Part shown: positions 2,258-52,578 of the stretch, piece by piece
Numbering within the stretch: the stretch's first letter is position 1
Layout of the letters: each line of letters starts with the position of its first letter
Source of the DNA: Marsupella aquatica
Taxonomy: Eukaryota; Plantae; Marchantiophyta
Direction of reading: 5' to 3'
NCBI GenBank assembly: GCA_973895155.1
Contig: OZ316892.1
Span: forward strand, 16,296,357 to 16,360,356
DNA length: 64,000 nucleotides
Position numbers and translations under genes: made by a program
Notes under the pieces: generated by a model
What the model saw: only the letters and a program-made list of their open reading frames with translations
What the model was told of the DNA's origin: nothing
Database searches by the model: none

Positions 2258-2370
2258 TGTGGATATACAGTAAACTTGAAAAGCTAAGATTGAGTGCAAA
2301 TTTTTAAATTTTCTGGTCGCTAAAGTTTAAGTTCACTTAAACTTACATTTTTTACGCCTTTTAGTAAGAT

Positions 2371-2411
2371 ACGATCTTACGATCTTACGATCTTACGATT
2401 TACGAACTTAC
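2371..2411 (+). repeat. 8-bp CTTACGAT tandem array in the B LTR (second cluster at 5226-5302)
   Basis: acgatcttacgatcttacgatcttacgattt is read directly. The array is 24 bp longer in the 3' LTR (32764-32830). Confidence 0.9.
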
Positions 2412-2591
2412 GCGGTACTAGAAGATTACGCCGTTGCAAGACTAACGGGCGGAAAGTACACTATGAGCCGCATCGCGTGAAATCTTACGACCAGAGCGAA
2501 TCACTCTCTGCATGACTATTTCCGACGCTTACAAGCATCGCTCCGCTTCATCTGATCAGCATCCACCTCAAGATTTGTGAACCCAAGAGCT

Positions 2592-4709
2592 ATGGCAACA
2601 TTCGATTGTGATGAGGAATACCTCATTGATTCTGTGGCAATTCCAAAAGCGCTCGTCATCAGGCTCCCAAGGACCGAAGAGAGCTATGAATCATTACGCC
2701 AATCCTTGAGAGAGCTTGGACTGGAAAAATTATTACGACTACCATGGACTTCAGAGTTGGACACCTACCTGGAAGATTTTGTCAGAGGATCAATTGTCGC
2801 CTCACCTTCGCCTACTTCTATTCGAGGACGGCCCAGCAAATGGACCATAGATCACTTCGCGTATGCTTTTGGATGTTCTGCTGACGGAGAAGCGCTACTT
2901 TCGCCCAAGAATGATACATCAACTCCATACTTTTCAGGTACCCGGAATAAGAGAAATGGCTGGAATGTGAGTCAATGCAATCATTTGGAGCTAAGAATTC
3001 TTTTGGAATTTTTGGTTCCTATTTTTCATCCCAAGAAACCAACTGTTTGCTCCATTTCTCTGGCCAATACCATCATCGCTGCGCACAGTGGTAGAGTAAA
3101 GGTCAATTGGGCTTTGGTATTTTTCAATGTTGTGAGGGATCAACTTCGGACATTAAGGGCGAATCAATCAACTCAACTGCAAAACTATCTAGCCCAGCTA
3201 TACTCCGCTTTTGATTGCTCACTTCCTGAGGAGGTGATGGAGAGAGATTATCTTATGGAAGAAATCTCCAAGTTGTGGGAACAAGATGAAATTATGCCTA
3301 CTACAGCAGAAGAGGCAAACGTCATATCGCCAGCTTCTCCAGGCAGCCGGGCAAGTCTTCACAATTCAAGTCCTTCAGATGAGGTACCCATGGACCTAGA
3401 AGCACTTACTACAGATGCTGAGATGATAGACTACCCAGGGATCCCCTCACCACCCCTTTCCACAGGAATTGGGAAGTTTCCTATTCGACTTGCACAGGAC
3501 GACTCCAATCAGACCCTGATCAGTAAGGTGTGTGCTTTGCTCAACTGTGACTTTCATTCACTGTACGAGACCATTGAGCAATTGCGCCATGACGCAGTGA
3601 CACAGGTTCCTCCTTCTGCACTTTCATCTCCGGATCATGAGAATTCGCCATCATCTTCACCTCCAGCAGAAATTCAGCTCTCCACAGAGGAACTTTTTGC
3701 TGTTAAGACCGTGGCTCAAATCTCAGTTCCATCCCCTACAGACTTGAAGGAGACCTCACCTACAAATTCAGAGCCTCCTCCCTGCTCATCTGTAGAACAT
3801 CACTCCTGCCTTAAGATTGTCCATGAGTTAACTACTATGTTAGGCTGCCGTTCAGAAGAAGGAACCTCCATAGTCGATGAATTTCTTGATAAACCTGAAC
3901 CTTCACGCTCCCCACTGCCATCCTCTCAGTTTCCCTATAGTCCTGATTCCAATTATGAGCCTACTGATAGTCTACCTCATAAATCTTTGCACTCCACACA
4001 GCCCTTCTCTCAGCAAGGATTTCCCTTTTCTGAAGATTCTGATCCTCCATCCACACCAGAATACTTCTTTCCCTATGATATTCCAGTCTGTGACTCACCA
4101 GATCAGGGATTCGAAAGAGTTAATGCAGCCTTGCGATCTAATCCCAACCTTGTTGCAGTTGTCACTTCTTCTACCCAGACTCCTAGAAACGCTATCATCT
4201 ATAAAATGGAGCCTAGAACACCAGAGCAACAAGTCCAGAAGTATGTCACCACTTGTAAGGTTATGCATGCCAATACACCGCCTATAAGTGAGTTCTGGAG
4301 GTTTTATTATTTGAAGAAAGCAGAGGCTAGCTACATTTTTGATCTCAGGATGATTGGTACCTCTTGCGTGGAGTTGGCTCAGTTTGATGAGTACTGGACA
4401 GATTCAGTCTACTTCCGACCTATACTGGCCGTTATGTTTCTACAAGGTGATGTTGAAGTTGATGACCCGGATTTAATCCTGGCCTATTTGGGAAATATAG
4501 CCACTTATGCTTTAGATTTCTTACTGATTTTTCTAAAACAGAGCAACAAGTCTACTACCCCTGATCACTCATATATTCCCACTGGACCCAAGGTTATCCT
4601 TACTTCAACCACTTCTTATGAAGACAAGCAGCGAGTATGGAACAACATCAGCACGCAGCAGCTAACAAACTACACTCGCTACTTCCGGGATGTGCAGTGG
4701 AAATTATGA
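2592..4709 (+). CDS. LTR-encoded protein of element B (N-terminal plant-transposon-protein/PMD-like domain, S/P-rich linker, unknown C-terminal domain)
   Basis: Open 705-aa ORF from ATG 2592, wholly inside the LTR. The motifs GLEKLLRLPW...FAYAFG...NKRNGW...LEFL...VNWA align with the family-A LTR protein. Confidence 0.75.
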   Translation: MATFDCDEEYLIDSVAIPKALVIRLPRTEESYESLRQSLRELGLEKLLRLPWTSELDTYLEDFVRGSIVASPSPTSIRGRPSKWTIDHFAYAFGCSADGEALLSPKNDTSTPYFSGTRNKRNGWNVSQCNHLELRILLEFLVPIFHPKKPTVCSISLANTIIAAHSGRVKVNWALVFFNVVRDQLRTLRANQSTQLQNYLAQLYSAFDCSLPEEVMERDYLMEEISKLWEQDEIMPTTAEEANVISPASPGSRASLHNSSPSDEVPMDLEALTTDAEMIDYPGIPSPPLSTGIGKFPIRLAQDDSNQTLISKVCALLNCDFHSLYETIEQLRHDAVTQVPPSALSSPDHENSPSSSPPAEIQLSTEELFAVKTVAQISVPSPTDLKETSPTNSEPPPCSSVEHHSCLKIVHELTTMLGCRSEEGTSIVDEFLDKPEPSRSPLPSSQFPYSPDSNYEPTDSLPHKSLHSTQPFSQQGFPFSEDSDPPSTPEYFFPYDIPVCDSPDQGFERVNAALRSNPNLVAVVTSSTQTPRNAIIYKMEPRTPEQQVQKYVTTCKVMHANTPPISEFWRFYYLKKAEASYIFDLRMIGTSCVELAQFDEYWTDSVYFRPILAVMFLQGDVEVDDPDLILAYLGNIATYALDFLLIFLKQSNKSTTPDHSYIPTGPKVILTSTTSYEDKQRVWNNISTQQLTNYTRYFRDVQWKL

Positions 4710-4724
4710 TCCTCCTACAACAAG

Positions 4725-5003
4725 ATGCTGAGTACAGAGATGTTCTTACAATTCTACCCATCTGTCTACGCCAACTCGTGCAATTGTTTAGATGTCATAG
4801 GCATCTTACGGGAAGCAATCAGAATCAACCAGTGCTTTTTGGAGAAAAGGATGTCACTTATGTATTGGGGAAGACAGATGAGATGTCTACCTTACATCCG
4901 GGATCAACCTCACTATGATGAAGTAAGGGAAGCTATTCGGACGCGCACTATTTGGAAAGTAGAAATTAGAGAACCAGAGGATATTCGACAACCAAAATAT
5001 TGA
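4725..5003 (+). CDS. In-frame downstream continuation of the B LTR ORF
   Basis: Same frame as 2592-4709, separated only by TGA 4707-4709. Conserved in the 3' LTR (35143-35421). Confidence 0.5.
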   Translation: MLSTEMFLQFYPSVYANSCNCLDVIGILREAIRINQCFLEKRMSLMYWGRQMRCLPYIRDQPHYDEVREAIRTRTIWKVEIREPEDIRQPKY

Positions 5004-6227
5004 AGCAGACCTGCAATTTTGTTAAGTGTCAGAGGCAGTTTCAGTTACTGTACCCCGCTCGATTTTATTAGACATGTTTTAAGATTCCAAAACTCATCAA
5101 GTCTTTTTCAGTAGACAGCTTATACATAGGAAAACACATTGGCAAAGTCTCAATCACTTTGGATTGTAGTTAGAAAGTTAGAAATACTTTAGTTTGCTGA
5201 GTTTAGGGTTATCGTTAAGTTTCCGCGACTACGACTTTACGATCTTACGATCTTATGATCTTACGAACCTACGCTTTTACAAATTACGATCTTACGATAC
5301 TACGGTAAACTTAACTTAGTTAGTTTTAGACCTTTTCATACTTAGTTTTCATTTTTGACTTTTTGAGGGTTTTGAAGGGTCATGACTCTTCAACCCCCAA
5401 GGGTTTTTCCTCGATGTTTTTCACTATAAGTACCTTCCACTTCTAATAAGCAGAAGTAAGTAAGTCAAACATGACTTGTCGCCCATTGGTGTTGTCCTTG
5501 TGATTTTGGACTTTTTGAAGTTCAGAGTAGGCAATCCTAGGAGGGACTTACCTCCTTCTTGTATTTTGGAACCCAAATACTTGAAGTAAAACCTCAGTTA
5601 TGAATCTCGTGAATTATAATGTCAGATTCCGCTTTGGTGACACATTGTAATCTCACAAGTTCTTAGAGTTAACCCATTGAGTTTAAGTTGCATTGGAAAT
5701 GATGTTTTCACCTTCATGTTACTTAGTACCATCTAAATGCTGAAGTATTTATCCTTTTAGATCTTGACTAAGTATCACTTAGGAAGAAAGGTCAAGACAT
5801 GTTGCCGGCATTTTAAAAGGATACTCTAGTATGCAGTTTAGATCTGAAAAGCTGTGTGGATTTGAATTCCCTTAAAGTCATTCCATTATTGCTTATGTCT
5901 AAGGAGTAACCTTGGTATATTCCAAACTCCCTTAAGCATACTCTAAGAGATTTTTCCTTGTGTTTTGTTAATTGCAACCTTTTGCTTAATTGATGGTTAT
6001 ATGATGTTGAGTTATCATCAAAAACTGCTCATCGCTGTGGAGCGATCTTCAAAGTACCTAATTAAAGTAGTCAAGATTGATTACTATGTGTGACACAACA
6101 GCTTAAAGCTTTATTTTTAGTTTATTACATCAAACCAACCCAATCTTGTTCTTAACGGGAACGAATACCGAGTTTAGAGACGTAAAAGAGTTCTTTTGGT
6201 TCTCTATAGCAAACTACATGAGATTTT

Positions 6228-6245
6228 TGGCGCCGCTGCCGGGGA
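6228..6245 (+). promoter_or_regulatory. Primer binding site, tRNA-Asp type
   Basis: TGGCGCCGCTGCCGGGGA, 9 nt after the LTR end. One mismatch from the Athila-type PBS TGGCGCCGTTGCCGGGGA. Confidence 0.85.
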
Positions 6246-6342
6246 ACAAATCAAGGTTGGTTTGAAAACCAGGCAGTGAATGCCAAATCAAGGTTAAATT
6301 TCAACAAAAATCTTTGGAGACAAAGGAGTGACAAGTGCAATC

Positions 6343-7718
6343 ATGACCTCCCCTGGAGAATGGGTGTTTCCAAGGCTAGAAGTTATACCCTTGTCGGTGG
6401 AAAATGCACCAAGAATGATAAGAGAAAGAATGGAACAAGAAGAAGCCCTCATTCATCGAGAAGAAAGAAAGGAAGCCAGAGCCAGAAGGGAAAGGCGAAA
6501 CGGTGCTTAAAACAGAAATTAAAAAGTCAAATCTTTCAGGAGATGGTGAGAAAAAGCCACCCTCAGAAAAAAGAGAGCCCAAATCTTATTAAGAGAAAGG
6601 CAAACACATGTGGTAAGAAGCACCTGCAACAGAGGAAGGGCAAAGATCCTAAGGAAATCTAATGGAAGTTATTATTGGAGCCGGGGGCTGGTGAGTGTTA
6701 ATTCCTGGGATACAAATGTTTTCTTAAATAGCCTTCTCATTTTTCAAAGTTCTGAAAATGGGAAATTAACTCTGGAAGAGGTAACCTGGGATGAATATTT
6801 CGACCAAAGCTCCATCCCTCACATTCTAAGCACCAATTTAATAGAAGAAGTGGTGTTGGAAAGTGCAATTGAGAGAGCATTGGATAAGGCCCTAGAAATT
6901 TTAAAAGATAACCCTAAGTGGAGGGAACACTTGGAGGAGGTTCTTAATAAATTTTATGAAACATCCAATGTTTTACTGGATTTGGAAAGACCATGCATGA
7001 CTCCTGCAAGGAGGGCATTGATAGCATCATTGAGATGGAGAAATGGAGATGGGTGGTTTGTGGTCAAACGAAGAAAAGGTCAATATCATGAATCACCTTT
7101 CAAATGGATAAAAGATCTACCACTCACTTCTCAAGTGGTGAACCTAGTACTTCTAAAAAAGGAAGGTTTGCAGGAATTTAGGTTACAACCCCTACCAGAA
7201 GAAAATGATTTGGAATTCTTGCTAAGAAAGTTCAGACAGCAATTTGTGTTTGTATCCTTAGAAGAAGAAGAAAATATTGAGATCAAATTAGGTGCCCTTC
7301 ACCTAATTGAGTCTCCATGGACAGATCACATCAATGCTATAGAAAATTTATTAAATAATTATGCACCAATGTCCGAGGTAAGAGGTGTGGAAGAAGAATT
7401 CTTTGAATTTGAAGTTTAGGAGAGTATCAACATGGCCCCATTAGGTCATTAGGAACATTCAGGATAAGGAACCTTAGACACAGGTATGTTCAGACCTGGG
7501 TCTTGTTATTAAGAGGGAGAAGAGGGATCCATTTGCTGTCTATCATCTGGTGGGAAGGAGAAAACCTACACATAGTTATTTTAAAACTAAATGGTAGGGT
7601 AACAGGAGAAGAGTATGTTGTTATGACCCTACGAGATTTAGTCGGACCAGTTCTCCAGAAGCAACGGGGAGATTATGAAAAGTGGCGTCTGGCGAAGGGG
7701 TGGTTGGACCCCCCTTAG
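6343..7718 (+). pseudogene. Extra ORF upstream of gag in element B, decayed, unknown function
   Basis: 6328-6510 and 6610-7419 share one frame, interrupted by three stops (6508, 6520, 6547). Further stops and a frame change follow after 7419. Confidence 0.5.
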
Positions 7719-8350
7719 AAGGGGAATGCATTAACACCCTTCCGTATCTGCACCGCTCTGGAAACACAAGGAAGTGTTACGATCTTATGTTCCTACGGCG
7801 TTATGGGTTTTACGAGCTTACGACCCTACTGCCTTACGATCCTACGGGTCTACGCTTTTACGAAGCCTTACTTGGTGGCAGGAAATATTCCGCACGCACA
7901 CGGATTGACTTCCGAGAGGTGCACCCTTACAACAGAAACGTCGCGCCTTCCCCAGAAGGACATAGAAGGAAAGGGCGCGACTCCTGAGCGTGCCTCTAGC
8001 GAAAGGGTATGAGCGGAACAGGACAGCCCTTTGCACCAAATCGGGGTTCTCTCTCTCACATTCCGACTACCCGAGATTAATTTCCTGAATATGAATCAGG
8101 GGAATCGTCAAAGCGCTTGGCAAGGCATCACTATGAGCTCCGAGAAATTCTCCGCAAAAGCAACCCAGGTCCTGTATTGAAGGACAGGAGAGGCTGGCAG
8201 AACATGCAATTCCGAGGGTGTTAGTTGACAAAGGACCTCGTGTTAACCTGATCTCGTTACGCTTGGTTCAAAATCTTCATCAAGGTCAAACCCTTCCAAC
8301 AAGCACTCACCTCAGGAAAACTAGGCTACTGAATTTAACTGGAATGTGGA

Positions 8351-9336
8351 ATGTCAGAAAAGACTCCGCAGTCATGGAAAAGGAAAAAATTTGTGCCCTC
8401 TCCAAGTGAACCTACTCAGTCACCAGTCCAACCAAGGGACCTGAATATAGCGCTGCAATCACCAAAATTCCCACCAAAAGGAAGTGTGAATGAGAGAGTG
8501 TCATTAATTCAACAAAACTCACAACTTGGAACATTGGATAATCCCACGCAGAGCCGGCCTTTGTTTGTAAATCTTAGGTCTGGACCAAAACTGGTGGTTC
8601 CCCAAAAGTTTAAAAGAATAAGAGGAGAAAGGAAACGCTCCACAAGCTTGGAAGAGTATCAGCGCACCCCTAGATTTCAGTCCTTAGGAGGAACTCGCTC
8701 TTGGGTAGACGACCAAACAATCCGAGATAGAGATACAGAGGAGGTGCAAATCAAGGACGACTCGGTCAGGGAAAGATTGCTCGCATACAGGGAAGGAACT
8801 ACCCCCCCTAAAAATACGTCAGGACAGGAGTCGCCCTCTACTAATCAAGAAACAATATCAGACTCGCCAAATAGTGTGGATAGTGTTCCTTTTGCAGAGC
8901 TGGGAAGTACCCCTACTTCGGCAAGCGCACACAGTGTATCACCAAGCTCTAACCCGCCAACCACTCCTCCCACATCACCTGGTTCACTACCACCACCAAT
9001 ACCTCACCCTCTCACTCCACCAACAGCCACCGTGGCTGCAGCAGCAGCACCTCCTGTACCTCCGGTAACCCCAGTTAATCCCCCGGCCAGAATGGCAAGG
9101 AATAATATAAGATATGACACTTTTAAGGGGACATCCAAAGAGGATGCAGAAACGTTTCTGAAAGAATTTGAAGCCGCAGCCACATCCAATGGACAGACCC
9201 TAGATGCGGAAAAAGCCACCATTTTTGGTGGTTTGTTAAAGAAAGGAGCTCAAAAGTGGTATGACCGTTTTGCTCATAAACAAGATTGGGGCCTAACTAA
9301 AACAGCCTTCTTGGACAAATATAAAGAGGATGGAGT
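8351..9336 (+). CDS. gag: Gag N-terminal part of element B (interrupted by CACTA)
   Basis: Pro-rich region, then capsid-like FKGTSKEDAETFLKEFE...LKKGAQKWY...W...KTAFLDKY. Joins in frame to 27407 (EDGV-SARAFARIS) when the CACTA and one AGT are removed. Confidence 0.9.
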
Positions 9337-10181
9337 CACTAGAAGAATCCGAGGTGAACTGAGACCGCAATATATGACTCATTTTGGCTCATGTGACTTC
9401 ATTGTGACTTGACCCACGCTGTGACCCTTGGAGTTGCAAAAGTTGAGACCAAAAAATGGAAGTCACTATTGATACTGGGCTTTGCAACTTGCTTGATACC
9501 CATTTGTGACTGATCTGTGACTTTATTGTGGAGTCTAGCCTTGTTTCGACGTGACTGCAATATGACTTCAGCGAGTCACATCGTAAGTCACATACATGAC
9601 TTACCCGCATTCAACAACGACTAGCGTGTGACTATTTAGTGTCACAGGAGAGACCAATGGAGACCCTGGCCCGCGTCACACAACAGAACCATTTGGGACT
9701 CTATATACTCATGTTTATAACTAATAAGGTTCACATGCAAGTTATAACCATGACTAATGAACACAGAGGGACAGTTCATAAGGAGAGAGAGCACTCGACA
9801 TTACAATACATAGAAACCTGATGTTCTAACTTTAGAAATATAACACATTGAATACAAGAAATGAACATAGCATGAATGACATCCACATGAAACAAAGCAT
9901 CATATAAGCAAATCCTACATAAAACATTCATAAGAATTAAACACAATCACAATCTTGCTAAAAAATGAAGATCATTTGAATTCCAATGGAATAGTTTACA
10001 ATGTGATCAATGTAATTTAGACAAAACAGGAACTCATAATTGATGACTGTAGGATGAGATAACTGAAAGCACATGCATGATACTATGAATCTCCAAGAGG
10101 ACATGATTCTTGTACTGCTTCTTGACATCTAAAATCTACATAACATGACTCACACTACAAACAAATAATGGCATGACATTG

Positions 10182-13100
10182 TTATGGATCCTCTATGAAC
10201 TTGCTTGGCCATAATACCAAAGAACCTGCAGCATCTCCAAGTGTCTTTTGAGGAGGATCATCATTTGTGTTTGGAATGGGAAGGACAGCTTTAGGTTTCA
10301 CTAGTAATGTGACTAACACTACTGAATAACCTGGGGGAATCCTCTTGCCATGGAACGTTGTGGAACCAACCTGCACTCTGGCAAATCCTACTCGTGTTCC
10401 ACTCTCATCAACAGCTAACAAGCCACTTTGTCCCTCAGCATTAGGTGCTTTCCCCACTTCCACCTTAGATCTTTCTGCCAGCACTGTTCTTGGAGGTTTG
10501 TATGAAACCTTTGACGTGGCTCTGCTCCCACCAGCAGACTTGCTTCGTGTGCGCATGCTTCCTCTCTTCACAGTAGTGAAGCTAGGCTCAGTAGGTTCCT
10601 CTATTAGGACTGTCACAGTAGCAGGTTCATCACCTGGGAGTGTCATACCAACTAACTCTTTGGTTGGATTTATCTCAACAAGAGGCACACCTGTCATTGA
10701 GAATGATACATTCTGCAAATCATTTATCCCTGCAATGGAGTCAAGATCTACATAGCATGAATCTGGCTCAATGGTATCATTGTCATGCTTGCTGATATCC
10801 TCATTTGCCCCAACATTGATATCATCCACTCCCTTGCCAATGTCATCCTCATCCAAACATGGTTGACTGCCCTCTGTCAAACAAGTTGCTTGTACAGACT
10901 GCAACTTTGTTGCCTCTAAATTACAGCGAGTATTTGCCAGGTTCTCATACTTCTTCTCTGTAGCACCTGTCTTATTCTCTATGGACACAACAACCACAAT
11001 ATATGTTACTGAAAATAACACATTCAACAAACAATGTCAATTCAAACTATACATTTAATAATCATATCCCACACAGTTGTAAAGGCCTTACCTTCAAGCC
11101 TACATGTCGTTGGCATGCCAGAAGAGTGCATCGACTTTGCCACCTCAAGTGGTGATGGTGGAACTCCTGCAGAATTGGAATCAATTTTATCTCTCACCGA
11201 CACAACATCTTCCATTAATGTCTTGAAGTTCACATGGAACAAGTCAGTCAATGAATTCAAACGTTCATTGATCTCTGGAAGACATGTTTCGACAGCCTTC
11301 AAACGACCACTTATCTCTGTAAGTGAAGATCCACCTCCCTACATGACACAGGGGTATAGGTTCAATCACTCCATATGAAATGTTGGGCAATATATGCACA
11401 ATCAATGTTATATACAGTGTACACCTGAAATTCAACGCAGGTCATTCAATTACCAATCAGAACTCATATAACTTACATGCTTGGAGGATTCAGATGCACC
11501 CTCTTGAGCCCGGGTGTTCACAATTTCAGCCCTCAACTCTTCTTTTGAAGGGCTTTGCCCCAATTGGGCTTTCTGCACATGCATGGCAAACACAAGTTAT
11601 CGATCAATATTCAGGGAACGTACACTAAAAAACAAAGTTTACATGTATGGGTTTACACTAAAAAACAGTACATAGTGTAGCATAAATTACATAGCTAGGC
11701 CATTCATTCTTACCAAACGTTTAGCTGTCGGTGCAGTGCCGGTCCTTCCTGTCAGATTAGGGTTCTGAACACTCAACCTGGCCTCGGTCATCTGTGAACT
11801 CTTCTTTTTTGAAGCATCTGTTACAAAATAAGCTACTAACCTTGCCCACACTTTATCATCACAACTGGCTGGTGGAGGCATATCTGGCTTCTCCCCACCT
11901 TCCTTCCAAGCCTTATGCATTCTCCACCTCTCTTGCTTGATAATTTTACCTGCTGTACTCTCTAGGCAACCTATGTCCACGCCATCATCACTGCCCACAT
12001 AATTCCATTTGGCAGCAACATTTTCACATACAGTCTTCCAATCTTTTGGATGCTGTTTTTTAAAATTAATAACACTCACATCTAACCAACGCAATACTTC
12101 AGCTTTCAAATCAGCATGCCATCGGTTCTTGCGAGGACACTCAGCATCCACCCATTGTCTCTCATTCAACTTTATGTTCCCTTTCTTTGTCACCTCCCCT
12201 CGTGCACTGCTCTCGGTAGTACTGGGCGTTGTATTGGCCACCCCTTCATTCACCCTACCTGGGGTTCTGAAGCCACCTGGGAAAATACAATGCCATTCAT
12301 GCTTGAGAACTACATATAGCAGAATGGATGACGGCAACATTCAATGCTTCACTTCAAGAAAAATTCTTCAAACATACATACCTGTAGCTCTGCCTGTAGA
12401 TGCCTGTGCAGGGACTGCACTCTGAAATTGTTGCGACCCTGGACCACCTGTCCAGCCTAGTACAGGGGCCGGATGATGTCACTTTCTAGGTATGTGTGTG
12501 CAAACATATGTACTGAAAACTAAGTACAAACTGTAGGAAAACAACTGAACATTCACCGACATACCTGTCCCCCTTCCGTGCTGCATCTGCATAGGGGCAT
12601 TAGTGAATACTTGAGTCGATGGTTCGACTGTCCAACCTGCACACATACATTTTCTATCATTATACATGTGCAGAGTCCCCCCCATGTGAATGGACTCCAC
12701 ATATAATGAGTTCTTCCATTGCTGACAAGATCAGACATTACCTGCTCCTCTTCCAGCGTTTGTAGGTACTGAATTTTGATATCCCTGCCAATTACCTTCA
12801 CCACCTTCCCAACCTTGTTCATTCCACGACCCACCACCATCCTCCCAACCTGGTTCAACCCATGTCTGTCCTTGTGGACATTGGAACTGATCATTACTAG
12901 CATTTGCCCAATCAGGTTGGGCAGAATCTGCATGCAATGGCAGGTGGACAGAATTTCATGTTGTCTGAATCCAATACATCCCAAACAATGTCAAAAATTG
13001 ATATGCAGTCTGAAATTCAGGAGTGCCATGCCTTCACAAAGAACTGGCATATAGATATATACTCACATCCCCATGGTTGAGGTGGACGTCCATACCCACG

Positions 13101-13971
13101 AGATTGTGGGTTTGGACCTGCTCTGCCTCTACCACGGGCATAACCTAGAGCTTGCCCCCTGCCATAGTATTGGGCACCAGCCTGGGATCTACCACTACTA
13201 CCACCTCGCCAACCTTGATCAGAGGTCAGCCCCCCCTGCTGGTATGGTGCATGCACAGGCTTCGAAGGCAAAACAGAACTGGCAGGACGCTGCATCACAT
13301 CACCAACTACAATGTCAGGAACTAAGCAAGGTACATATGTGTAGTACTGAACATATGAAACCTCTAAACAAGAGTTTTTAACTCAAAACCTTGTTGGGAA
13401 AACTACTTACATGTTTCTTTTGGGGCTGCTCTGCAATGTATTCATCTTCATAACCCCCATCCTCATCCATTTCCTCTGGAAAATACTCATCATCTGCATC
13501 TTCTTGTCTAGTGTCTGCACCCATCTGTACAGCATCAATGTCATCTCCACATTCTGCCATTGTAGGTACGACCTTCTTGCTCAACCTGTCACTCCGACGC
13601 ACAGGCCCAGAGATAGTGTTGGTCACCCTTCTTGCGTACTCCTTTTGTTTCTTTGAAAGTGCTGTGGCCTGCGACATTCCAATATGAGAATACAGTCACA
13701 ATTTCAGTGCCACATTGAACTATTCATGTCACACAAACTCAGCGGAGGGGTGTAGTTGAGAATCGTTCCCTTACAATTCAGCCACATCCTTTTCCAGATC
13801 CAGTTCTACGATTTTGGCTTTCACGTATGCTCGTTGTTCCATAGCTTTCCTTTCATACTCACACATCTCTGTGTCACTCTGTTCCATCCTACTGGACCAC
13901 AAAAACATGTCATCTATGGTCACCCCGTATAACACAATGCAACCACAATCACCAGGCATCCATCCATACAT
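10182..13971 (-). CDS. CACTA TNPA/TNP1-like second gene, multi-exon (exon boundaries approximate)
   Basis: Series of minus-strand ORFs separated by intron-like gaps. 11687-12340 resembles Ptta/En-Spm (WARLVAYF...KKKSSQMTEAR...TGRTG). 10182-10400 has the C-terminal motif FHGKRIPPGYSVV...LPIP...TLGDAAGSLVLWP. Confidence 0.7.
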
Positions 13972-14043
13972 CTGTGTTGCTTCAGAATTACTTTATTACA
14001 CATCCTTCCCCTCACTAATGTCCATGCAAACAATTCACATTAC

Positions 14044-17000
14044 TCATGGCACAGGCACACTGTTGGCATCTGCATCTCTGAATTCGCCTCCTTCAGCAAA
14101 TGCATCTACCCTTGTCACAGGAATGAAGTCCCCGCTATCATGAACTACAGGCACTTGGTCTGATCGCCGACGATCAAAGGCACTATGAGAGTGTAAATGA
14201 AACTCAAGGTTTGATCCTTCCATCTGACGTTGCCTGGCCTGTTTATGACACACTACACGCCAACCTGGGGAGTCTTCCACATCCAGGAAGAAAGCTTGCT
14301 CCACCTGACTAGGAAACACAAATGGCTCAGACCATTCGGGCAATTTCCCTCTGAAATTGGCCAGCAAGAAACCGTCGTTGTCTCTCTTCATGGTAGCCCT
14401 GTTACCAAGCCAATCCTGCCGCACCCATGAACCTTTCATAAGAATCACAGGACTGGACACCGCCCCATAGTCCAGAGCCCATATGTCAACTAATTCTCCC
14501 ACATATCCCATCTCCATCCAGGCCCTGTCGTGATTGTGGCTCTGTTGCTCAAATACAGTGATGAGCCCGCAGTCATTCGTCACCCTGTAGGCACTGTCAC
14601 CATCCTTCACTCGGAAGTGATTCCCATATGCTCTCATCCGTTTGTAAGTCTTCACTTTCAGGCTAGGGGCATTAGACAGTAGGTAAACATCTGCATCCAT
14701 GTTTGGGTGGGTCTCGTGATGCTCTCTAATTGCCACTCTGATCCACTCCATGAAACCTGGAAAAGTTGTTCCTGCAGTGGGATGGGCCGCCTTCAATGAC
14801 TCATACTCCCTGAACGAACAACCACACAGCATTAGCTTGGGTAAACATGAACAGGCTGAAGGAGAAAACCACACGAACACAACATTTAAGCTCATGAACT
14901 AGATTATAGCACATGTATGCACTCACTGTATCTAGGGTTCCATCACCACAGTGTTGTGCAATACAAAGTCATGTGCCAAGTCTCTCATAGATATGGTCAG
15001 GTTCTTTGTGGTTGCAGCCCCTTCCAGTACTTCACCTATCACCCCTTCCTCCTCATCAGAATTCCACACCCTGGTCTTCACATGCTCATATTGTGCTATG
15101 TATTCGGTCAGAAATCCCAGAGTCTCATCCTTGATGTAACCTTTAGCCATGCTTGCTTCAGGTTTGTAATATGTTCTCACGTGACCTTTGAGTAGCTTCA
15201 TGTACCGTTCCAAAGGGTACAACCAACAAGCACTCACAGGCCCAAATTGGTGTAGCTCTTCCACAACATGGACAAGTAGGTGGGTCATGACATCAAAAAA
15301 TGCGGGAGGAAAATAAATCTCCAGGTCACACAGCACCTGAGCGACATCTTCTGTCAGTTGTGGGAAGTGTGTTTCATCCCAAACCTTCACACAAATACGA
15401 CGAAACACATCACTGAGTCGCATGATCACAGTACGAACAGGCTTCTGCAACAGGCTCCTCAGGCATAAAGGCAACACCTGTTGCATCAACATATGGTAGT
15501 CATGGCTTTTCATACTACCAAGCTTTCTAGTCATGATATGCTTCTTGAAAGCACTGCCATAGTTTGAAGGAACCTTCAAAGAACTCAACCTCTGCACAAA
15601 TAGTTCCCACTCTGTGTCTGTCAGAACATAGGGCGCTTGGTACTTCAAGAGCACATCAGCTCTGTGGGCATGTGGCCTCAACCAAAGATGGGGTTTCATT
15701 CCCCTCTGTTCAAGATCCAATCTCACTGAACCAGTGTCTTTCTCTCCACACAAGAATCTGAGTAGACTCTCACAAATATTCTTTTCAATGTGCATAACAT
15801 CAATGTTATGTTTGCTTGGCTCAAACTCCTGCATCGTTGCAATGCAAAAGCGTCAGGAAATGCCTCAAGTTTAGTCTCTCTCTTCGAAATGAATGCACAT
15901 GCTCTGAACCAAAACATGTATCCCAATTAGCATCAACTCCAAGAGGCTTACCCTCCAGTACTTGAGCTCCAAGTCCAATATGCTCAGTCTTTTTACACCA
16001 TATCGCTTTATTGGATCACTCACTCCATCTTCCCTGCCCCCTCGTTTGATATAGTCATCCCTCAGTGCTCCCCACTGCCTGATCTCCTCTTTGGTCACTC
16101 GTGTCGGGGGTCCACGTTGCTCAATCTCATTGCCAAAGTGTGCAATCAGTGCCTGTCTTTCTCTGTAAGGGTGATCTGCCTTCAGAAAACGACGATGGCC
16201 CATGTATATCACTTTCTGCAGGGCTCTAGAGTACTCACTGGTGACATTGCACCCACAGATAGTACAAGCATAATATCCTTTTGTTGTTTGGCCTGATATC
16301 ATCCCATGGGCTGGGTAGTCAGCTATAGTCAGAATGACAATGGCTCTAAGGATGAATGGGTTTAACCTCCCAAGCCTCTGTAGGACATCATATGTGAGAA
16401 CTCCTTCCTCCCAAAGCTTTCTCAATTCCTCCACTAGGGGAGCCAGAAACACATCTATGTTGGCAGATACAGCACTGTCTGGCCCTGGTATCAGTAGGAC
16501 CATCAGAACAAAAAATCGCTTTGTAGTCATCCAAGGAGGAAGGTTATAATTCAAAATAGTTACAGGCCAGCACGAAAATTTGTTGTTCTTGTCTCCAAAT
16601 GGGTTTACCCCATCCAATGACAGCCCAAGTCTGACATTCCTCGGCTTAGCAGCAAATTCGGGATACATCTCATCTATGAGTTTCCATTGCCTTGAATCTG
16701 CAGCATGTCGTTGTAGCCCATCATCACTTTTCTTGTCAGTTGCCCAAGTCATCATCTCCGAGATGGCACGGCTTCTGAACATCCGCTGAAGTCTGGGAAT
16801 GAGTGGAAAATGACGAAGTACCTTGGCGGGAACCATAGACTTTCCTGAGTTCCGATACCTGTGCTTCCCACACTTAGGGCATGTCAACGATTCTTTATAC
16901 TCCTTTCTGAAAAGAACATGCCCATCAGGACAGGCATGGATCGAATCATAGTTCAATCCAAGATTAGATATGCATCTTTTTGCCTCGTACATGTTCTTGG

Positions 17001-17634
17001 GCAAAATATTACCATCTGGTAGCACAGTTGTTCGCAAGAATGCCAACAACTCAGAAACCAAAATGTTGGGGACATTGTGGTTGCCGCAAATGTTCAGGAA
17101 CATGATGACAAATCCCAGTTTAGAACATTTGCTACCGGGGTACAAAGACTTCCTGCCTTCCTGTATTTGCAGGGGAGAGCCAAACATCCCATCATGCCCA
17201 GGGGTTTCCTGCCCTATCTCAAACTCATCAAGAGGCTCTTCGACAGGGGGCACACTTGCATCTGCAGCCGTATCCTCTTCATTGTCCAGCCCATCATGAA
17301 ATGCATCCAAGTCTTGGAAGATGTCTCTCACCATCTCTTCCACATGAATTCCTTCGTCACGTGGTGCTGCCTGAGCACCATCCCGTTGGAGAGCTGACAA
17401 CCCACAGAGACCAGCTACAACATTTTCAAATGCACCAGGCAGAACCTCACTTGCCCGTCTTGCAGCATTGGCAGCATCAAATTCTAACCTCCACTCCTCG
17501 TCGGAAGAATCTTCCTCTGCAGGATCATTCCAAACTCGATGTCGTGGATCTCTTCCATGAACCGCGATATGCCGCCAAACCTCATTCAGACCCCTGGTAC
17601 GGGATCCTTGGCAGATTGCACAAGGACATCTCAT
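14044..17634 (-). CDS. CACTA TNP2/TnpD transposase (Transposase_21, DUF4218, DUF4216 regions), spliced, with one probable premature stop
   Basis: Motifs MRCPC..C, IHACPDGH, RNVRLGLSLDGVNPF, YNLPPW, DYPA, HNIDVMHIEKN, KSHDYH, FFDVMTHL, WLYPLERYM and EPFVFPSQVEQAFF. TAG at 14932-14934 sits just before a GTGAGT donor. Confidence 0.93.
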
Positions 17635-18208
17635 CCTACTGGCTCCTTAAAGTCTGGTTCGTAACCTTTCACGCTGCCAAAGCTTATTATCATGGCGTGA
17701 TATCCTTGTGGGATGATGCAAAGGCAGTGCCTGTGCCCTGGGCTGGGTCTGGGGAGGGTGGTGACCAGGGTGCATTGTAACAGGCTGGGAGCTCTGCAGT
17801 CATGGACAGCAGTGAACAAGGATGCCTAATGGTGGTATTTGTGTTCCATATATCCCTGATTGTATCTGCCAAAAGAGTTAACATAACGTGTACTAAATTC
17901 TCACAAACCCTAAACCACCCCAAAAGAAAAAAACAGGTTCGCAAGTAGTGTACCTATTGTCAAGTGAATGACACAAAATTCCTAAATGTTGGAGGGTGTC
18001 ACCACCTCCTCCGCTGTCCTCAAATGTACCGCCTCTGCATGTACGTTTATAGTGACACCCCCAGGCAGCAGGAAACAACAATCCGCCAACAGTAAAATAA
18101 GCCCAACTGCCACCAACCATAACAAGGTACATTAGTTCAAAGATCACATTTATTTCAATGATCTGATTTATACAAAAAAACTTGTGTCCAAACTGATGCT
18201 ACTACTCC

Positions 18209-19081
18209 TCACTCTGATTCAGAATCGCTAATGACCCATTCCTCACTTGTTGTCTCATAGTCCTCTCTGTAAGGATCCTGACCCTTCCGTGGCCAGGCCT
18301 CAAAAAGATCATAGTCCATTGGGTTTTGACGCTTCCCAGCTGCTACTGATTCCACAAGCCAAGCATATGAAACCACAAACACATTATGGGACATGACATA
18401 AAAGCGAATGTCTCCCTTCCCAAACTTGCGGCAGGCTTTGGGATATGACTTAGTAATGACATGAGTGGTGTCCTCTGTTATATTCTCCTCCACTGTCCCA
18501 CCTAGGTCAAGCACTGTGGACTTGTACACTTTGCACTTAACCTCTCCAATTCCCGCCTCCACAAATACCATGCTCAGCCCTTTCAGAATGGGGGTTGGTT
18601 GCTTCGTCTCCTCAGCCAACATACACTTCAGCCTTGTAGAGCTCTGTCCTTTGTTGAGTACAGGTCCATATTGGAGATCAGCAAGCCGTGCCTTTGCTTC
18701 CCAGACTTCTTGTTCAACCCAAGCTGATGCAGAAGCTTCTTCATCCTCCCACAACTCATATTGCTCAGTATCCTGTACAATCTTATGTGCTATGGAATCT
18801 GTGATCCAAGAGGCCTCAACTACTTTTAGGCCTTGCTTAGTAATTGCAGAATTCATGTAGGACCATGACCACTTCTTTATCACTGATAGCCATGTCCCTG
18901 CAACAACATGTGTAGTCTCTGGAGTGATGTCCTGAACTACAGTGCCATGGAGCTCAGAGAATCATTTCTGTACAGTTGGCCAATGCACTTTGGTCAACCC
19001 ATGCTGGCCATGGACCAAAATCGCTCTGACCCCTGTAAACACTGCTGGGTGGTCACACTTTCTACGTTTACCAGGCTCCAT
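18209..19081 (-). pseudogene. Tandem BRCT-domain gene (Pol-lambda-type BRCT) inside the CACTA, one in-frame stop
   Basis: Manual translation from ATG 19081 gives MEPGKRRK..VFTGVRAILV..QK*FSELHGTVVQDITPETTHVV..VVEASWITDS. A second repeat follows: ILKGLSMVFV..LGGTVEENITEDTTHVI..VVSYAWLVESV. The TGA is at 18962-18964. Confidence 0.8.
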
Positions 19082-19673
19082 GTACACACACTCTACGTGA
19101 TGATAGTGAATTTTGGAAGAATGGGTTCACCTGACAATACAAGGACAACAAAATTCCTGCTTTTTGAGTTGATCTGGCCCACTGGTGCTCAGGTCCGATT
19201 TTGATAGGTACAAGGGATATGTGAACAATACGTACTAGGCACCTGCACGGATGCAGGACATTGTTTGAATATATACTACAAAATCCATATCCGTGGTGAA
19301 ATGAAGTGCAACCAACTTGTCATGGCACATACATATTTTGTTGTAAAGGAGGATACATTCAATGACAAACTTATAGGGCAATTTGATTAATTGCATGCCT
19401 GATAATTTATACGCTTACAACTTAGAAGTCCTGTTTTAATTTAGCAGTCTGATGAAAGTGTTTATGAAAATGACCACTCAGCCTAAATACTTCCAAGAAG
19501 GCTTGTAAGGATAAGTTTGTATAGGCATGTACCCAGCCACTGACGCCAGAGCACAAGATAAGTGCTGCCTATATAAACTCGCCTACCCAACTCCTTTTCA
19601 AAATTGGAATCTCTGCAATCTCAAAAAATAGTACATCCACATCAGGTGCACTGTGCATGTACAATGTTCAGCT

Positions 19674-20354
19674 TCACAGCCAAGATATGTGATCTCTCAC
19701 AGGAGTGCGCGAGGTAGGATCAATGGCATGGCGATGACAATAAAATATCCATCGATCAACACCATGTGCAGAGTGATCATAGATTTCTCTGTCACAAGCA
19801 TAACCCTCTGCTTGATGATCTTTCAGGCAATGATAGTGCCACATAGTGGGACACCTAGCACAGTGGACTATGTCAGTCCAGTAGTCATCATCATGCTCAC
19901 CACATGCCTTGCACCTATGAAGTGGGCAAGCTGTGGCATGAGCAGGAAAACACTCAAAACAGAAAAATCTCACACAAAAACGGTCTGGACATTTCCTAAC
20001 ATTTGCTGCAGCATCAACAGAGCCCTCATAGGACCCCAACTTCCCACACTGTGCACACTTAGCCTGCTTCTCCAAACAATCAGTGCACATCCAGTCTCCC
20101 TGGTGTGTTGACGGGAGGCCCACCCCTGGACAGTTGTTTTCTGCAGCAAGGTCAGACTCCGGGTTGAGGTGGAAATGCCTCATGCAAGGGCCCTCACAAA
20201 TGACCAGGCCCCCACCATCGTCACAAATGGCACAACAATGAGCTGCCTTCTGGAAAATCTGACTTGCAGAGAAGTTAGTAGCATCTACCCCAAGTACACC
20301 TGTGTTTCTCACCTTTGTCACACGCTTTTTGGCTTGAATTTTAGGCCGTGCCAT
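19674..20354 (-). CDS. EDM2-like PHD-finger cluster protein (reader module only) inside the CACTA
   Basis: Motifs CAICDDGG..CEGPCMRHFH, C..C...KC..CGKLGS, CPLHRC..C, C.RCP..WH..CL and IFYC.RH.ID....TPVRDHI. These match the EDM2 PHD region as I recall it (CAICDNGG..CEG.CLRSFH...LIYC.EHEID..L.TPVRDHV). Confidence 0.85.
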   Translation of the reverse strand: MARPKIQAKKRVTKVRNTGVLGVDATNFSASQIFQKAAHCCAICDDGGGLVICEGPCMRHFHLNPESDLAAENNCPGVGLPSTHQGDWMCTDCLEKQAKCAQCGKLGSYEGSVDAAANVRKCPDRFCVRFFCFECFPAHATACPLHRCKACGEHDDDYWTDIVHCARCPTMWHYHCLKDHQAEGYACDREIYDHSAHGVDRWIFYCHRHAIDPTSRTPVRDHISWL

Positions 20355-22511
20355 GCCTGCGCATGAGATAGACTCTACAATTTAGCAGACTGCATAGAAA
20401 GTAAAATATATTTAGCATTTAAGGTACAAAGGCATTTGCTACTGCAATGAATTGGAATGGCCCACACAAGGATGCAGAGCACACATACTTTTGGTATGTT
20501 GAGCCCACACACAAAACTGATCCCCTAATACAATTTCTCCACCAACACCTCAATTTTAATTGTGGCTATGATTCACCAAAGGAGATCTGCAACAACATTT
20601 CATGCATTTGAATCACATACAATAGTCGTGACATGTAAAACAGGCATTCTTCGAAGAGGATTGGTATGAAGCAGTGTCATAAGGGTTGAAATTTATACAT
20701 CCTAAATAGGTTATGATAGTGGCTGAGACAAATAAGTGAGGCATAAATCATTTTGCATATTATCACATGGCCCATTAATTCATTCAACGTTGCAATGTTC
20801 ACCAGGTTAAAGCAGTCATGAAAGCAGTCTTTCAATAGAGACTTTTATGCGAGTTTGCTAGCCTCTTAAATTAGGATATTTTGCTTAGTGCAGGCATAAT
20901 AGGATATAAGTTATGTACTGTTGACCCTAAACCCTGGACCCAAAATTGCTCATACATCAAAATTTTAAGTAAATATCCTCTGTGTTGAAGTGAGAGTGTT
21001 AAGCTATAGGTCAATGGTATCTGGTCTGTGCATGCGGTGTGACAAGTGGTCCTCTAGAGCATGTGATCCAAACATGTGTAGACACCAAAGTCACCGGTGG
21101 TGGGGTCTGGGAGGGCAGGACAAGTGACATCACCAGGCACACTGCAGGATGGCGAGTGGTTCCAGATGATACATTGTGCTCTGTGCAAAAATCGGCATCC
21201 AAGAGAACGGTCATCCAATTCTGGGCCAGAAGCCCTACAGGCAGGACAGTCATATTGGCAACTGTGTACACACCCTTGGCACCTAATTTGTGGCGGGTCA
21301 TGTACAAGAGACACAAATACCAAGGATGTCGGGAAGGGTACTGAAGCAGGTAGAGGCCGGCTGTAGTTGTTCCTGGAAACAACAGGGTACTCAAAGTACC
21401 ATGCAGACTGGGCTGGAAGGATCCCAAGTCTGACATACTCAAGGCGCAACATCTCTGCCTTGCGTGCAAGTCGCACATGTTCAGCGTTGTGGGTCCTCAC
21501 CATAAGTGTTGCTTTCGTTGTGATGTCCTCTGTTCACGTCCTTTGATGAGCAAGGTGAGCAGGAGGTCGACTTGCCTCGCCAACAGCAACCACCTAAACT
21601 AATCAGTTCCCACTCATTGTCTTGGTTCCAACTACAGGTCATAGTATACACATAGCATGAAACGTGCATAGTACATATTTGATTCTGAGTTTATGAGTTT
21701 CCTAAGACAAAGAGCTTGGTGATAAACCCATATTCTCGACGGACATGTATATCAATCATATTAAACTCCTGTTTTTTCATCCAGAAAGACCGAAAGTCTC
21801 ACCTTGCAGGTTGCAGCAGAGAGAAAATTCACTGGTTGTCGTGTTGTGCAAGTGAACCTCCACTGATGCCCCGGTGTAGCCCCTCAGATGCAGGTGACAC
21901 TTACCAACTCCCAAGTTGCCTGGTCTAACAGAAAATGCTTATATCTTCAGAACTTTATAGAGCAAGTACATGATCACATACTTCTGGATCTATTCATATT
22001 TGGAACTCTTGCCAACTACAACTCCCATTATGCACAAGCTCACATCAACAGAGAAAGATACAGAATGCATACTTACTATGGCTCTAAGCACCTTCACTAC
22101 CTTGTTGAACCCAGTCCTGAAGTCTTTTCAGCGTGTTTGTTGTGCTGTCTCCTTTGGCACCCAACACCTTAGTCCTTGATGTAACAGAATGCGATTTTAC
22201 AAGTTAGATGCTTTGGAACCTTCTATGGTCTTAGCTGAATTGATGTCATCGTAAGTGGTGAAAGACAAGGAAGATGAAAGCTGGTTGAAGAGCTGTGGAC
22301 AACACACTAGCATGAAGTGCTTCAACCAATCCACTGCCAAACGGAACTCTTACACAGTCACATTCTTTTAGTAAACAAAAACTCAGTCAAACTTCAGAAT
22401 CAAAGTACAGACTCTGAAGGACCAAAGGAGGATGTTGTGAGTTTCTCTGTTGTTTAATGTGTTACCCTTCTAGTTTCGAAGTTAGCAAATGCTGAATAAT
22501 GTGTCTACCAG

Positions 22512-22854
22512 ATCTTCGAAAAGAAGCCCACCACAATTAAGAACTTCGGTATCTGGGTCCACGTATCAGAGTCGTACAGGTTATCACAACATGTACAAGG
22601 AATATTGTGATACCACAAGAAACGGAGCTGCAGAGCAGATGTATGATGAGATGGCTTCTTGTCATAGAGTTCGGTTCCCTTGCATCCAGATCATGAAGAC
22701 TACGACAGTCCCTGTCTCTCTGTGCAAGCGAGAAAGTACCAAGCAGTTCCATGATTCAAAGATCAAGTTCCCCTTGACGTACTGCAAGATTCAACCTCCA
22801 TTGCGAAAGCTAAAGAAGACTTACAAGGCCACCAAGCCCAACACAATTGTTTGA
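22512..22854 (+). pseudogene. RPL18A: Captured last exon of 60S ribosomal protein L18a (eL20), frameshifted
   Basis: After a CAG acceptor the sequence reads [15 protein letters not shown], then a frameshift, then [38 protein letters not shown]...[12 protein letters not shown]...[10 protein letters not shown]. Confidence 0.92.
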
Positions 22855-25800: not shown

Positions 25801-27406
25801 AGAGTGTAGGACCTCCGCCAAGCCCAGGGCAGCAGCTCAATGAAACTCAATTTGCAACTCGTCTCACTCTCGCTCTTGCTGCAAAGAAAAAAAAGCGCAG
25901 GTCAAACTCCTTTGTGGCCTCAGTCCCCACCGCTTTCCCCAAGCTATGGACAACTACTAGCAGCTTGCGCTCACAGCATGACATCCAGGTCTTTAGCCAA
26001 CTGCACACTGGAAACCGAGAGAAGTGAGCGCAGTCACGCAAGGCCAAAAAAGACCAAAGTTGAGCCAAAGCAAAACTTTACTAATGTATTTATAGTCAAG
26101 CATGAGGGCAATCAGGTAAGCAGAAGACCACGCATTCCCGCAAAGAGTTGTAGGTTCTCGTCACTTCCTCGCCTCTGTATAGAAGGTCGATCGTTGTATC
26201 TCGGGTACCCAATGATAGTGGAGATGAATGCAAATAGGCCTCACCAATCGCCAGTCATCCGCGATAACCCTCCCGACAACCTTTGTAAACTCTGGACCCA
26301 GCCTCAACCTCACTCAGCACAGTAGCAAAACCTAGCAATGTCACCGCTGCAATGTTTTGTGCTTGCAATAAGCAGCCTCCTAAACCCACAGCTCCTTCCA
26401 CTGCCAACAAAATGCCAATGACTCAACCCTCATTCCAACCCCGAGCTCCCAATAGTAGCGAGAATCCAAGCCTTTGACTGCAAGCGCACAGCGGAGACAA
26501 GACACTCAAAGAAGCTCGATAGGATTCACTCAGGAAACCTAGGGCCCAAGCCTGACGATGTTCGGCTCTTCCTTCTCGCTCGCCAAATGCCGACACTCTG
26601 TGCGCGCGAAGGCACTCGTCGTTTCTCCCAAGGGTTTTGGCACAAGGGGTTTGGGAAAAACAGTCAATGGGCAAAGGCATTACCATGTAACACGTGGAAA
26701 CTTGTGGCATGGTCCATTAGGTGAAGGGGTTCATGAAGCCAATTGAGGGCAACACGCATTACAAGGAAGAGTAGGTAGAAGTGGTCTTGCGGCAAAGGCA
26801 TTGCATTGTACCCTTAACAAAAAGAGTCCCTAATATTGGGCTGTTCAATATTCCTAGATGAAGGGAGTTGCAACCATTTGAAATTGGCCAAGGGGTATAT
26901 TTGGAGACAGAATGCTGCCAAATGATGTTAGTGGGTTCAGTGTGTGTCTTTCTCTTTGTATGATGGAGTAACCAGTGGCCTGCATCATGGCGCGCGACTT
27001 GCAATTGCACCGACCTCCGGTACATATACCTATAATCATTTTGTCAATCATACATATAAAGTATATATGTATGGGTTGGATTTGGGATGTGGGTCGGCAT
27101 TATTATTTAATAAGAGCCAAAGTTATATTGTTCTTATATATGTGCAACCATGGTGATAAATATGGCAGAAAGCGCTATTATAATTGTGCTGAGTCACTTA
27201 TAAAACTTCAAAATAATTGCCTACACTAAGTTACAATTGCAACACTCCAAATAGTTATAGATATGACTCTCCAAAAATTCACCAAAACTTAGTTGAGAAG
27301 GTGTAACAAAGATGACACCAATAACCTTGGAGTCACTAATTTCCAAAGGTCTCAAGTAAGTCATGTAAGGGAGGGTCTCAGATAGGGCCGGTTTCTTCTA
27401 GTGAGT

Positions 27407-32622: not shown

Positions 32623-32638
32623 GGATACGGCGCCGTTT

Positions 32639-32651
32639 GAAGGGAGGGCTA
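32639..32651 (+). promoter_or_regulatory. Polypurine tract of element B
   Basis: GAAGGGAGGGCTA immediately before the 3' LTR TG. Confidence 0.85.
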
Positions 32652-36636: not shown

Positions 36637-36641
36637 AAGAG

Positions 36642-49668: not shown

Positions 49669-49885
49669 AATTCAGCCTTTGACTTTGTATTTATTCATAT
49701 CAATCTAAAATACTTCTCGGTCTCACAGAATGCGCTCAAGAATTAAAGTCTCCATATCCGTCTACACATTGTGAGGCTTCTAAAAATGGTATGTAGGTTA
49801 ATTTTCTTTTTTGTCAGCCATTGTCTTGTATTTTTGGACTGAGACAATCCTAATCCAAAGTTCACTTTTGGTCTTTTCTCTAAGA

Positions 49886-51289: not shown

Positions 51290-51337
51290 AGGACTGATTT
51301 GTGAACAAAAGAAAATACACTTTTAATGAATAGGCTG

Positions 51338-52204: not shown

Positions 52205-52578
52205 TGTGATGCCTAGCCAAGAATCACTAGGCCAGTTTAAATGGTAAAATCAGGAGTGTACCCTGGAAACACATTAGTATAGTAACAAAAACACGGAAAA
52301 TATAAACAATTAAGGGTGATTATGGAACCCGAGCCGAGGCCGGAAGTTAGGACATCGGGAGAGGGAACACGATTAGGGTTAGGGTGTGCTAAGTACAGGC
52401 AGCTATGGGTAACTAACAGGAAGGAAGACCAGGCAGGGGGGTAAGGATCGATCGCAAGGAATGGTGGCTCATTTGCAAGCACGAACTAAGCAGACGACTA
52501 TGTAAAGCAACTACTGTTAGCTGCTTAGGCAAGCACTTGGGGAGGGAGCAGATACCGACTATCAATTCAAGGAAGGGT

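Follow-up and report, generated by a model that had tools for sequence, protein, structure and literature searches.

A gene within the long terminal repeats of an Athila-like retrotransposon of Marsupella aquatica, and a possible VANC-like role for its product

Coding sequence that lies in the U3 part of a long terminal repeat (LTR) and is copied into both LTRs is familiar from retroviruses, in mouse mammary tumour virus (MMTV) sag and lentiviral nef. The extra open reading frames (ORFs) of LTR retrotransposons are placed in the internal region in the accounts of PMC7264820, PMC6317226, PMC11728184, PMC3485330 and PMC2410132, and the initial annotation of the DNA described here stated that those of Athila, Tat and Ogre elements normally lie between the LTRs. 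Element-encoded modulation of methylation in Athila is named as an open question in PMC12844716, which also asks whether VANC-like anti-silencing factors are encoded by LTR retrotransposons. Here we describe a 64,000-nucleotide stretch (the window) of Marsupella aquatica (Marchantiophyta; assembly GCA_973895155.1, contig OZ316892.1, positions 16,296,357 to 16,360,356, forward strand), in which an Athila-like Ty3/Gypsy retrotransposon, element B, carries a whole accessory gene inside its LTRs. We propose that this gene was captured by a switch of the polypurine tract (PPT) and encodes a predicted VANC-like DNA-binding anti-silencing factor, an explanation that, taken as a whole, we put at about an even chance.

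Element B, which lies on the + strand, is bounded by direct repeats at 2258–6218 (3961 bp) and 32652–36636 (3985 bp), the longest internal repeat of the window. Both copies begin with TG and end with CA. A 5-bp target site duplication (TSD), AAGAG, lies on both outer sides (2253–2257 and 36637–36641), a primer binding site (PBS)-like sequence, TGGCGCCGCTGCCGGGGA (6227–6245), starts 9 bases past the 5′ LTR, and a purine tract directly behind pol (PPT, 32636–32651) immediately precedes the 3′ LTR. The TSD, PBS and PPT rule out a segmental duplication as the source of the repeats, which are LTRs as originally proposed. The PBS is putatively of the tRNA-Asp type, a trait of the Athila lineage; no tRNA gene was found in the 64-kb window. 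The LTRs differ by 27 substitutions (22 transitions and 5 transversions) and by an indel of 24 bp that lies in a tandem array, giving a Kimura two-parameter (K2P) distance of 0.0069 and, under the plant substitution rates that we assume, an age of 0.3–1.6 million years. The interior comprises gag (5′ part 9090–9337), and then, at 27405–32573, the remaining gag, protease (PR), reverse transcriptase (RT) and RNase H (RH) as well as integrase (INT) in the Ty3/Gypsy order PR-RT-RH-INT, with in-frame stops at 29712 and 31494. There is a single RNase H match with a short tether to the integrase, and the domain search of element B returned neither an archaeal-type RNase H nor a chromodomain, a combination given as a criterion of the Athila lineage in PMC6317226. 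Judged by this domain content, element B is Athila-like.

Within the 5′ LTR, an ORF of 705 aa (2592–4709) ends in TGA at codon 706 (4707–4709), behind which 97 in-frame codons extend to 5003, giving 803 codons. In 2000 shuffles of the LTR the longest stop-free frame was 229 codons, ruling out a chance ORF. The codon-706 stop is common to both LTRs, while the gene copy in the 3′ LTR has an additional nonsense codon at codon 338, because of which the 705-aa ORF is open in the 5′ LTR only. The sole full-length match among 7992 candidates scored, P0002 (808 aa), spans both sides of codon 706, with identities of 53% (aa 1–225), 35% (linker), 72% (aa 501–705) and 61% (past the stop). This full-length relative occurs in several data sets. 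Furthermore, majority contigs have another base at 4707 in all four runs, and at both its twin site 35125 and 34021 (codon 338) in all three covering runs. The absence of the stop from the majority contigs rules out both 705 aa as the true length and read-through at codon 706. The codon-706 stop is a lesion of this copy, the gene has 803 codons, and it is broken in both LTR copies of this element. Of what the initial annotation had claimed, the position between TG and CA and the 803 codons with the continuation hold, but the open 705-aa frame in both LTRs, its reading as the gene itself and the completeness of the gene in this copy do not.

The two LTRs share five gene differences from the majority contigs, including the codon-706 stop, and four of the five alter the protein. 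Since these differences are in both LTRs, the gene was likely already decaying in the parent copy at transposition, which suggests that the protein was either supplied in trans or dispensable.

The ORF is nevertheless a real gene under purifying selection, wholly within the LTR. A search of 1.8 billion representatives returned 301 relatives at E ≤ 0.001; among the 150 matches listed, most cover aa 20–230, ten are confined to the C-terminal part, and both parts occur in P0094. Compared with L001, a related element on a metagenome contig, the N domain differs at 55, 44 and 70% of codon positions 1, 2 and 3, respectively, with synonymous sites saturated. In contigs of a divergent subfamily, five of the eight listed differences are synonymous (a count for the listed subset only). 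The codon-position differences, the 301 relatives and P0002 speak against neutral evolution of the ORF. A metagenome scan with P0002 found no relatives among 23 candidates. In the linker of P0001, a short helical motif, L/M-x-C...I...V..L, occurs twice (aa 312–335 and 410–432), and it recurs in P0002, P0010, P0050 and P0094.

No Pfam family matches the element B protein. A model of its N domain (aa 1–235; 2592–3296), built on 94 sequences, reached a predicted local distance difference test score (pLDDT) of 94.7. Foldseek ranked DNA-bound VANC21 first (E 0.095, prob 0.80, template modelling (TM) score 0.46), the other listed rows having prob ≤ 0.02. With VIA-align, VANC21 was the only match at Z ≥ 5 among 48,161 chains (Z 6.5, root mean square deviation 4.5, 199 of 235 residues), and the runner-up had Z 4.1 over 59 residues. 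In the Atlas, the N domain falls with Transposase_32 and ATHILA clusters at 0.90. Plant mobile domain (PMD) and VANC proteins are described as structural homologues (PMC13547354; 10.1101/2024.09.27.615353), and the N domain likely joins that group; on the strength of the model, we consider its membership of the VANC/PMD/Transposase_32 fold group likely. The VANC21 match itself is moderate. Residues R78, K149 and W173 are conserved. In profile comparisons, no Transposase_32, ATHILA or PMD match exceeded the curated Pfam cut-off, neither the protein nor its 94 relatives matched DUF1985, neither it nor its relatives matched PF10536 (PMD), and a profile search of solved structures gave coiled-coil and low-complexity matches only. 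The C domain (approximately aa 530–803; 4170–5000), which is helical and cut by the premature stop, was modelled on 15 sequences with X at the stop (pLDDT 81). It found no fold match in PDB (Foldseek; VIA-align best Z 3.5) or BFVD, null results that show neither a new nor a different fold. A degenerate methyltransferase was considered for this domain but is unsupported by the model or the searches, and its Atlas matches are below 0.9 and scattered.

The non-coding DNA of element B holds arrays of a short motif. An 8-bp CG-containing unit, TACGATCT, is arrayed just 5′ of the gene (array 1, 2370–2412) and again 5′ of a TATA-like site (array 2, 5237–5298, within 5228–5300). That site, CTATAA at 5424, is the only TATA-like site in the non-coding part of the LTR. 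A looser cluster of the unit, the degenerate array 3 of the TTACG motif, lies in the 5′ leader (7777–7865). Of the 18 GATCTTA sites in the window, 17 are in these non-coding clusters of B, all on one strand. The leader of the LTR gene (2258–2591), a putative promoter of its own, has an observed/expected (o/e) CpG ratio of 1.58 versus 0.47 in the ORF; for the array regions the values are 1.58 and 1.02 versus about 0.5 in coding DNA, partly reflecting the motif's own CG. A bacterial promoter scan, whose model is not relevant here, found nothing. L001 lacks the B motif and has a motif of its own, AGCGCTA, in its LTR and leader.

VANC proteins are reported to bind short motifs that are particular to their family and stand in tandem arrays in non-coding DNA, and to remove methylation, in trans, from that same transposon family (PMC5735166). 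From VANC-like motif arrays and VANC demethylation in trans we propose a VANC-like self-protecting factor. The predicted protein would bind the family's own TACGATCT arrays, and binding would lower methylation or other silencing there. The factor would act in trans, allowing copies whose own gene is broken, this one included, to go on moving. That the N domain binds the arrays and lowers silencing in trans is a prediction by analogy, which we advance tentatively, at somewhat under an even chance.

Several observations weigh against such a function. The VANC21 match is below Z 8, above E 0.001 and at 11% identity, and Transposase_32 was matched weakly by two of the 94 N-domain relatives (best E 0.005). 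A common fold is no proof of function, and the PMD relatives MAIN and MAIL are described as host regulators whose direct DNA binding is unproven (10.1101/2024.09.27.615353). Six of the 14 AGCGCT sites of L001 are in two coding linkers. Sireviruses have CG-rich repeated motifs in their LTRs and 5′ of extra ORFs, for which PMC2829016 gives no known cognate protein, and this keeps a plain regulatory reading of the arrays alive; the same source reads these repeated motifs as regulatory CpG-island boxes. The gene might then have been captured in the same way but encode an ordinary Athila-type accessory factor, serving integration targeting, particle or RNA handling, or host-protein binding, with the arrays as host transcription-factor sites in CpG islands. 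We regard this as possible, though doubtful. It fits the C domain, which matches nothing, as well as the description of Athila extra ORFs with Transposase_32/ATHILA domains as lacking an established function (PMC11728184, PMC6317226) and the many predicted host contacts of accessory proteins (PMC13547354). However, of the solved folds only one spans the N domain in full, that of a sequence-specific DNA-binding anti-silencing protein, and the motif differs between B and L001, yet its placement in LTR and leader is kept. A further alternative makes the gene a passenger of the LTR: it would be of genuine ancestry but would now be neither needed nor expressed, least of all from solo LTRs. Both gene copies here are broken, and the protein-altering majority among the differences shared by the two LTRs is a neutral pattern for this copy's lineage. 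The freedom of the majority contigs from either stop, the recurrence of the 808-aa relative, the synonymous share of the listed subfamily differences and dN/dS values of 0.10–0.26 in five of seven comparisons in a second LTR family of the window, family A, make this improbable.

How the gene came to lie in the LTR is suggested by L001, a collapsed circular assembly with a 123-base end overlap. Its pol is 63.6% identical to that of B, its PBS is the same over 23 bases, and its N domain is 36% identical. L001 has the order pol, tract 1, gene (4222–6450), tract 2, 990-bp LTR, PBS, leader, gag. Thus its extra ORF sits between pol and the PPT, as the Athila criterion has it, whereas that of B sits behind the PPT. 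Tracts 1 and 2 of L001 both end in GAGCTA, followed by GG after tract 1 and TG after tract 2. In B, TG follows the pol-adjacent tract and opens the LTR; its 5′ flank resembles tract 1 of L001. According to PMC2829016, Athila4 and Calypso have an additional PPT, and upstream tracts do not work because they lack an attachment site. The 1.2 kb behind the gene in B aligns weakly with the post-gene region of L001 (score −111 versus −163 ± 15 for shuffles, the best of 100 being −128), and behind the gene B shows no remnant of another PPT with TG after it. We infer, from one relative and with the direction unrooted, an ancestor that would resemble L001, with pol, tract 1, gene, tract 2 and a 1-kb LTR. 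Loss of tract 2 and gain of a TG end at tract 1 would have moved plus-strand priming to the upstream tract, and all DNA between would thereby have become U3, the gene being copied into both LTRs. Since the LTR of B starts at the pol-adjacent tract, it was likely such a switch that brought the gene into U3; the sequence comparison makes this course of events probable. The position of the TATA-like site behind the gene and the comparison with L001 both suggest that the gene lies in U3.

The origin proposed above has evidence against it too. L001 shows one LTR in a collapsed assembly, so the tract–TG junction is the only mark of where that LTR starts, and L001 shares the N domain only, with no match to the C domain. 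The junction of family A resembles tract 2 of L001, not tract 1, and does not fit the same switch. The gene could instead have reached U3 by another route, be it insertion of a gene-bearing fragment or template switching into the 3′ LTR; alternatively, the long LTR could be ancestral and the short LTR of L001 derived. In family A, too, the LTR holds a related gene, with a tract-2-like junction directly behind integrase, which allows an ancestral or repeated LTR location. We nonetheless judge these routes unlikely. No independent terminal inverted repeat (TIR) or TSD surrounds the gene module, the PPT flank of B resembles tract 1 of L001, and an internal position is given as the rule for extra ORFs in PMC7264820 and PMC6317226. 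Contig depth is also level from the 5′ end of the LTR through the gene, indicating that the gene module is not a separate element; a nested element carrying the gene was rejected on this ground and for want of bounding repeats.

Capture of the gene by the LTR has a consequence for what the element leaves behind. Recombination between the long LTRs would leave solo LTRs, each comprising the gene, the CpG-rich stretch upstream of it and the poly(A) region downstream in the LTR. Contig depth, a rough proxy and not a copy number, was compared between gene and pol. In run X1, a 4145-base gag-pol stretch in one contig, with no differences, had a depth of 21.4 versus 234 and 270 for gene contigs. The pol contig of run X3 (0–1 differences) had 36.2 versus 336–385 over the gene, and run X2 had 74–109 over pol versus 750–1350 over the gene; the ratios leave out X4 (uneven) and X5 (little of the element). 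The PBS flank had depths of 25 (X1) and 59 (X3), and the PPT flank 25 (X1) and 89 (X3). The LTR depth of family B is thus about 9–12 times that of pol (X1, X3). As one element has two LTRs, this corresponds to about eight more LTR copies without these internal ends and suggests many solo LTRs of family B. On the other side, a solo LTR of family B has not been directly seen. Overall, we think it likely that LTR–LTR recombination left many gene-bearing solo LTRs. The claim of the initial annotation that solo LTRs keep the gene is indirectly supported by the LTR/pol depth in family B and directly by a solo LTR of family A.

The DNA into which B inserted belongs to family A. One LTR of this family (1–2257, continuing at 36637–38266, + strand) received B within its gene. 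A second (52205–55771, 60409–60636 and 63116–64000, + strand) stands right behind an integrase remnant (51305–52160) and a PPT. Nested within it on the − strand is the solo LTR (55772–60408; 4637 bp, TG..CA, TSD ATCCA), with a decayed gene whose N domain is weakly related. The long gene in the LTRs of this family is decayed; its N-terminal part weakly matches the B N domain (E 4e-6 to 1e-4 among 36 frames; hhalign probability 70%) and is followed by a coiled coil. dN/dS between copies was 0.13, 0.13 and 0.26 in the N-domain frame and 0.19 and 0.10 downstream; two more comparisons (0.31 and 0.68) were likely disturbed by frameshifts. By these ratios, the LTR gene of family A is under purifying selection. 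The contig depth of family A is hundreds of times that of B pol. Given its tract-2-like PPT junction, family A may represent an independent capture by another route. At about 60637–63115, the family A LTR contains a 2.5-kb pyrimidine-rich insertion, possibly another solo LTR.

Other features of the window were as follows. The 3′ LTR (32652–36636) carries the second gene copy with its stops at codons 338 and 706. The 3′ part of the 5′ LTR (5611–6218), putatively R/U5, is common to far more abundant relatives; these last 600 bases are 87–95% alike in another family, which is much more abundant and has no copy of the gene of such likeness. A decayed ORF of 289 aa in the 5′ leader (6550–7718) has no clear Pfam family; a short frame in the L001 leader, at about 7700–7950, resembles its tail (WWE...FHIVI...LNGRVT). 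An in-frame stop separates protease from RT in both elements (window 29712–29714, L001 814–816); the context of the L001 stop fits the UAG-CAR-YYA read-through signal. gag is split by a nested 18-kb CACTA transposon (9338–27403, − strand, TSD AGT) with Transposase_21, DUF4218, DUF4216 and Transposase_24 matches and cargo-like BRCT (18212–18961) and PHD (19677–20381) frames. Between about 38267 and 51300, a 13-kb block bounded by 22-bp GTACATTT arrays is probably a DNA transposon with unusual cargo: DUF7869 (39074–40507), an N6/N4 DNA methylase match (47284–49668), a NIF phosphatase (49802–50944) and coding or tandem repeats of 27 and 81 bp.

The locus offers a structural lead on the extra ORFs of Athila/Tat/Ogre elements and a concrete route by which an LTR could lengthen by 3 kb and acquire a gene. 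With one candidate target motif from B and another from L001, two related elements, reciprocal binding is testable. Solo-LTR formation, the main route of removal by the host, would leave coding units behind. LTR-based dating or annotation that assumes non-coding LTRs misses such genes. A broader generalisation would be that Athila-like elements encode VANC-type, sequence-specific anti-silencing factors that co-evolve with family motifs, that at least two families here moved the gene into the LTR, and that solo LTRs, normally dead ends of removal by the host, would thus be a dispersed pool of helper genes by which the family stays unsilenced in trans; we consider this rather speculative and, on balance, improbable. 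A literature search of limited coverage returned no title or abstract on an LTR-internal gene of plant Gypsy elements or on a link between VANC and Athila.

Among described systems, the closest are Athila elements with a 3′ sense extra ORF (ATHILA PF03078, Transposase_32 PF20167), which share with B the PR-RT-RH-INT order, the 5-bp TSD, the long leader and a sense accessory ORF just behind pol whose N domain is likely related. Their extra ORF is internal, whereas that of B lies behind the PPT, inside the LTR, is duplicated and has a new C domain. Retrosat2/RIRE3 also combines LTRs of more than 3 kb with an extra ORF (ORF0) and many solo LTRs, reported at 2.6 per complete element, but its ORF0 is described as lying 5′ of gag-pol and not as part of the LTR (PMC3485330). 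The plant mobile domain proteins (Ogre PMD-A, MAIN/MAIL) likely belong to the same structural group as the N domain (PMC13547354; 10.1101/2024.09.27.615353); unlike them, the B protein has no PF10536 match and its gene is inside the LTR. MMTV sag and nef are retroviral, unrelated and much shorter, while B holds an entire gene of 2.4 kb, for which there is a candidate origin. VANC of the VANDAL (Mutator-like) DNA transposons is the best structural match over the whole N domain, and for its targets, too, short family-specific motifs in non-coding arrays are described (PMC5735166). It differs in being encoded by a DNA transposon rather than an LTR retrotransposon, with 11% identity and no sequence match, and the B protein has an extra C domain. 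The B protein may work like VANC while not being a VANC member, given the lack of a DUF1985 match and the other transposon class.

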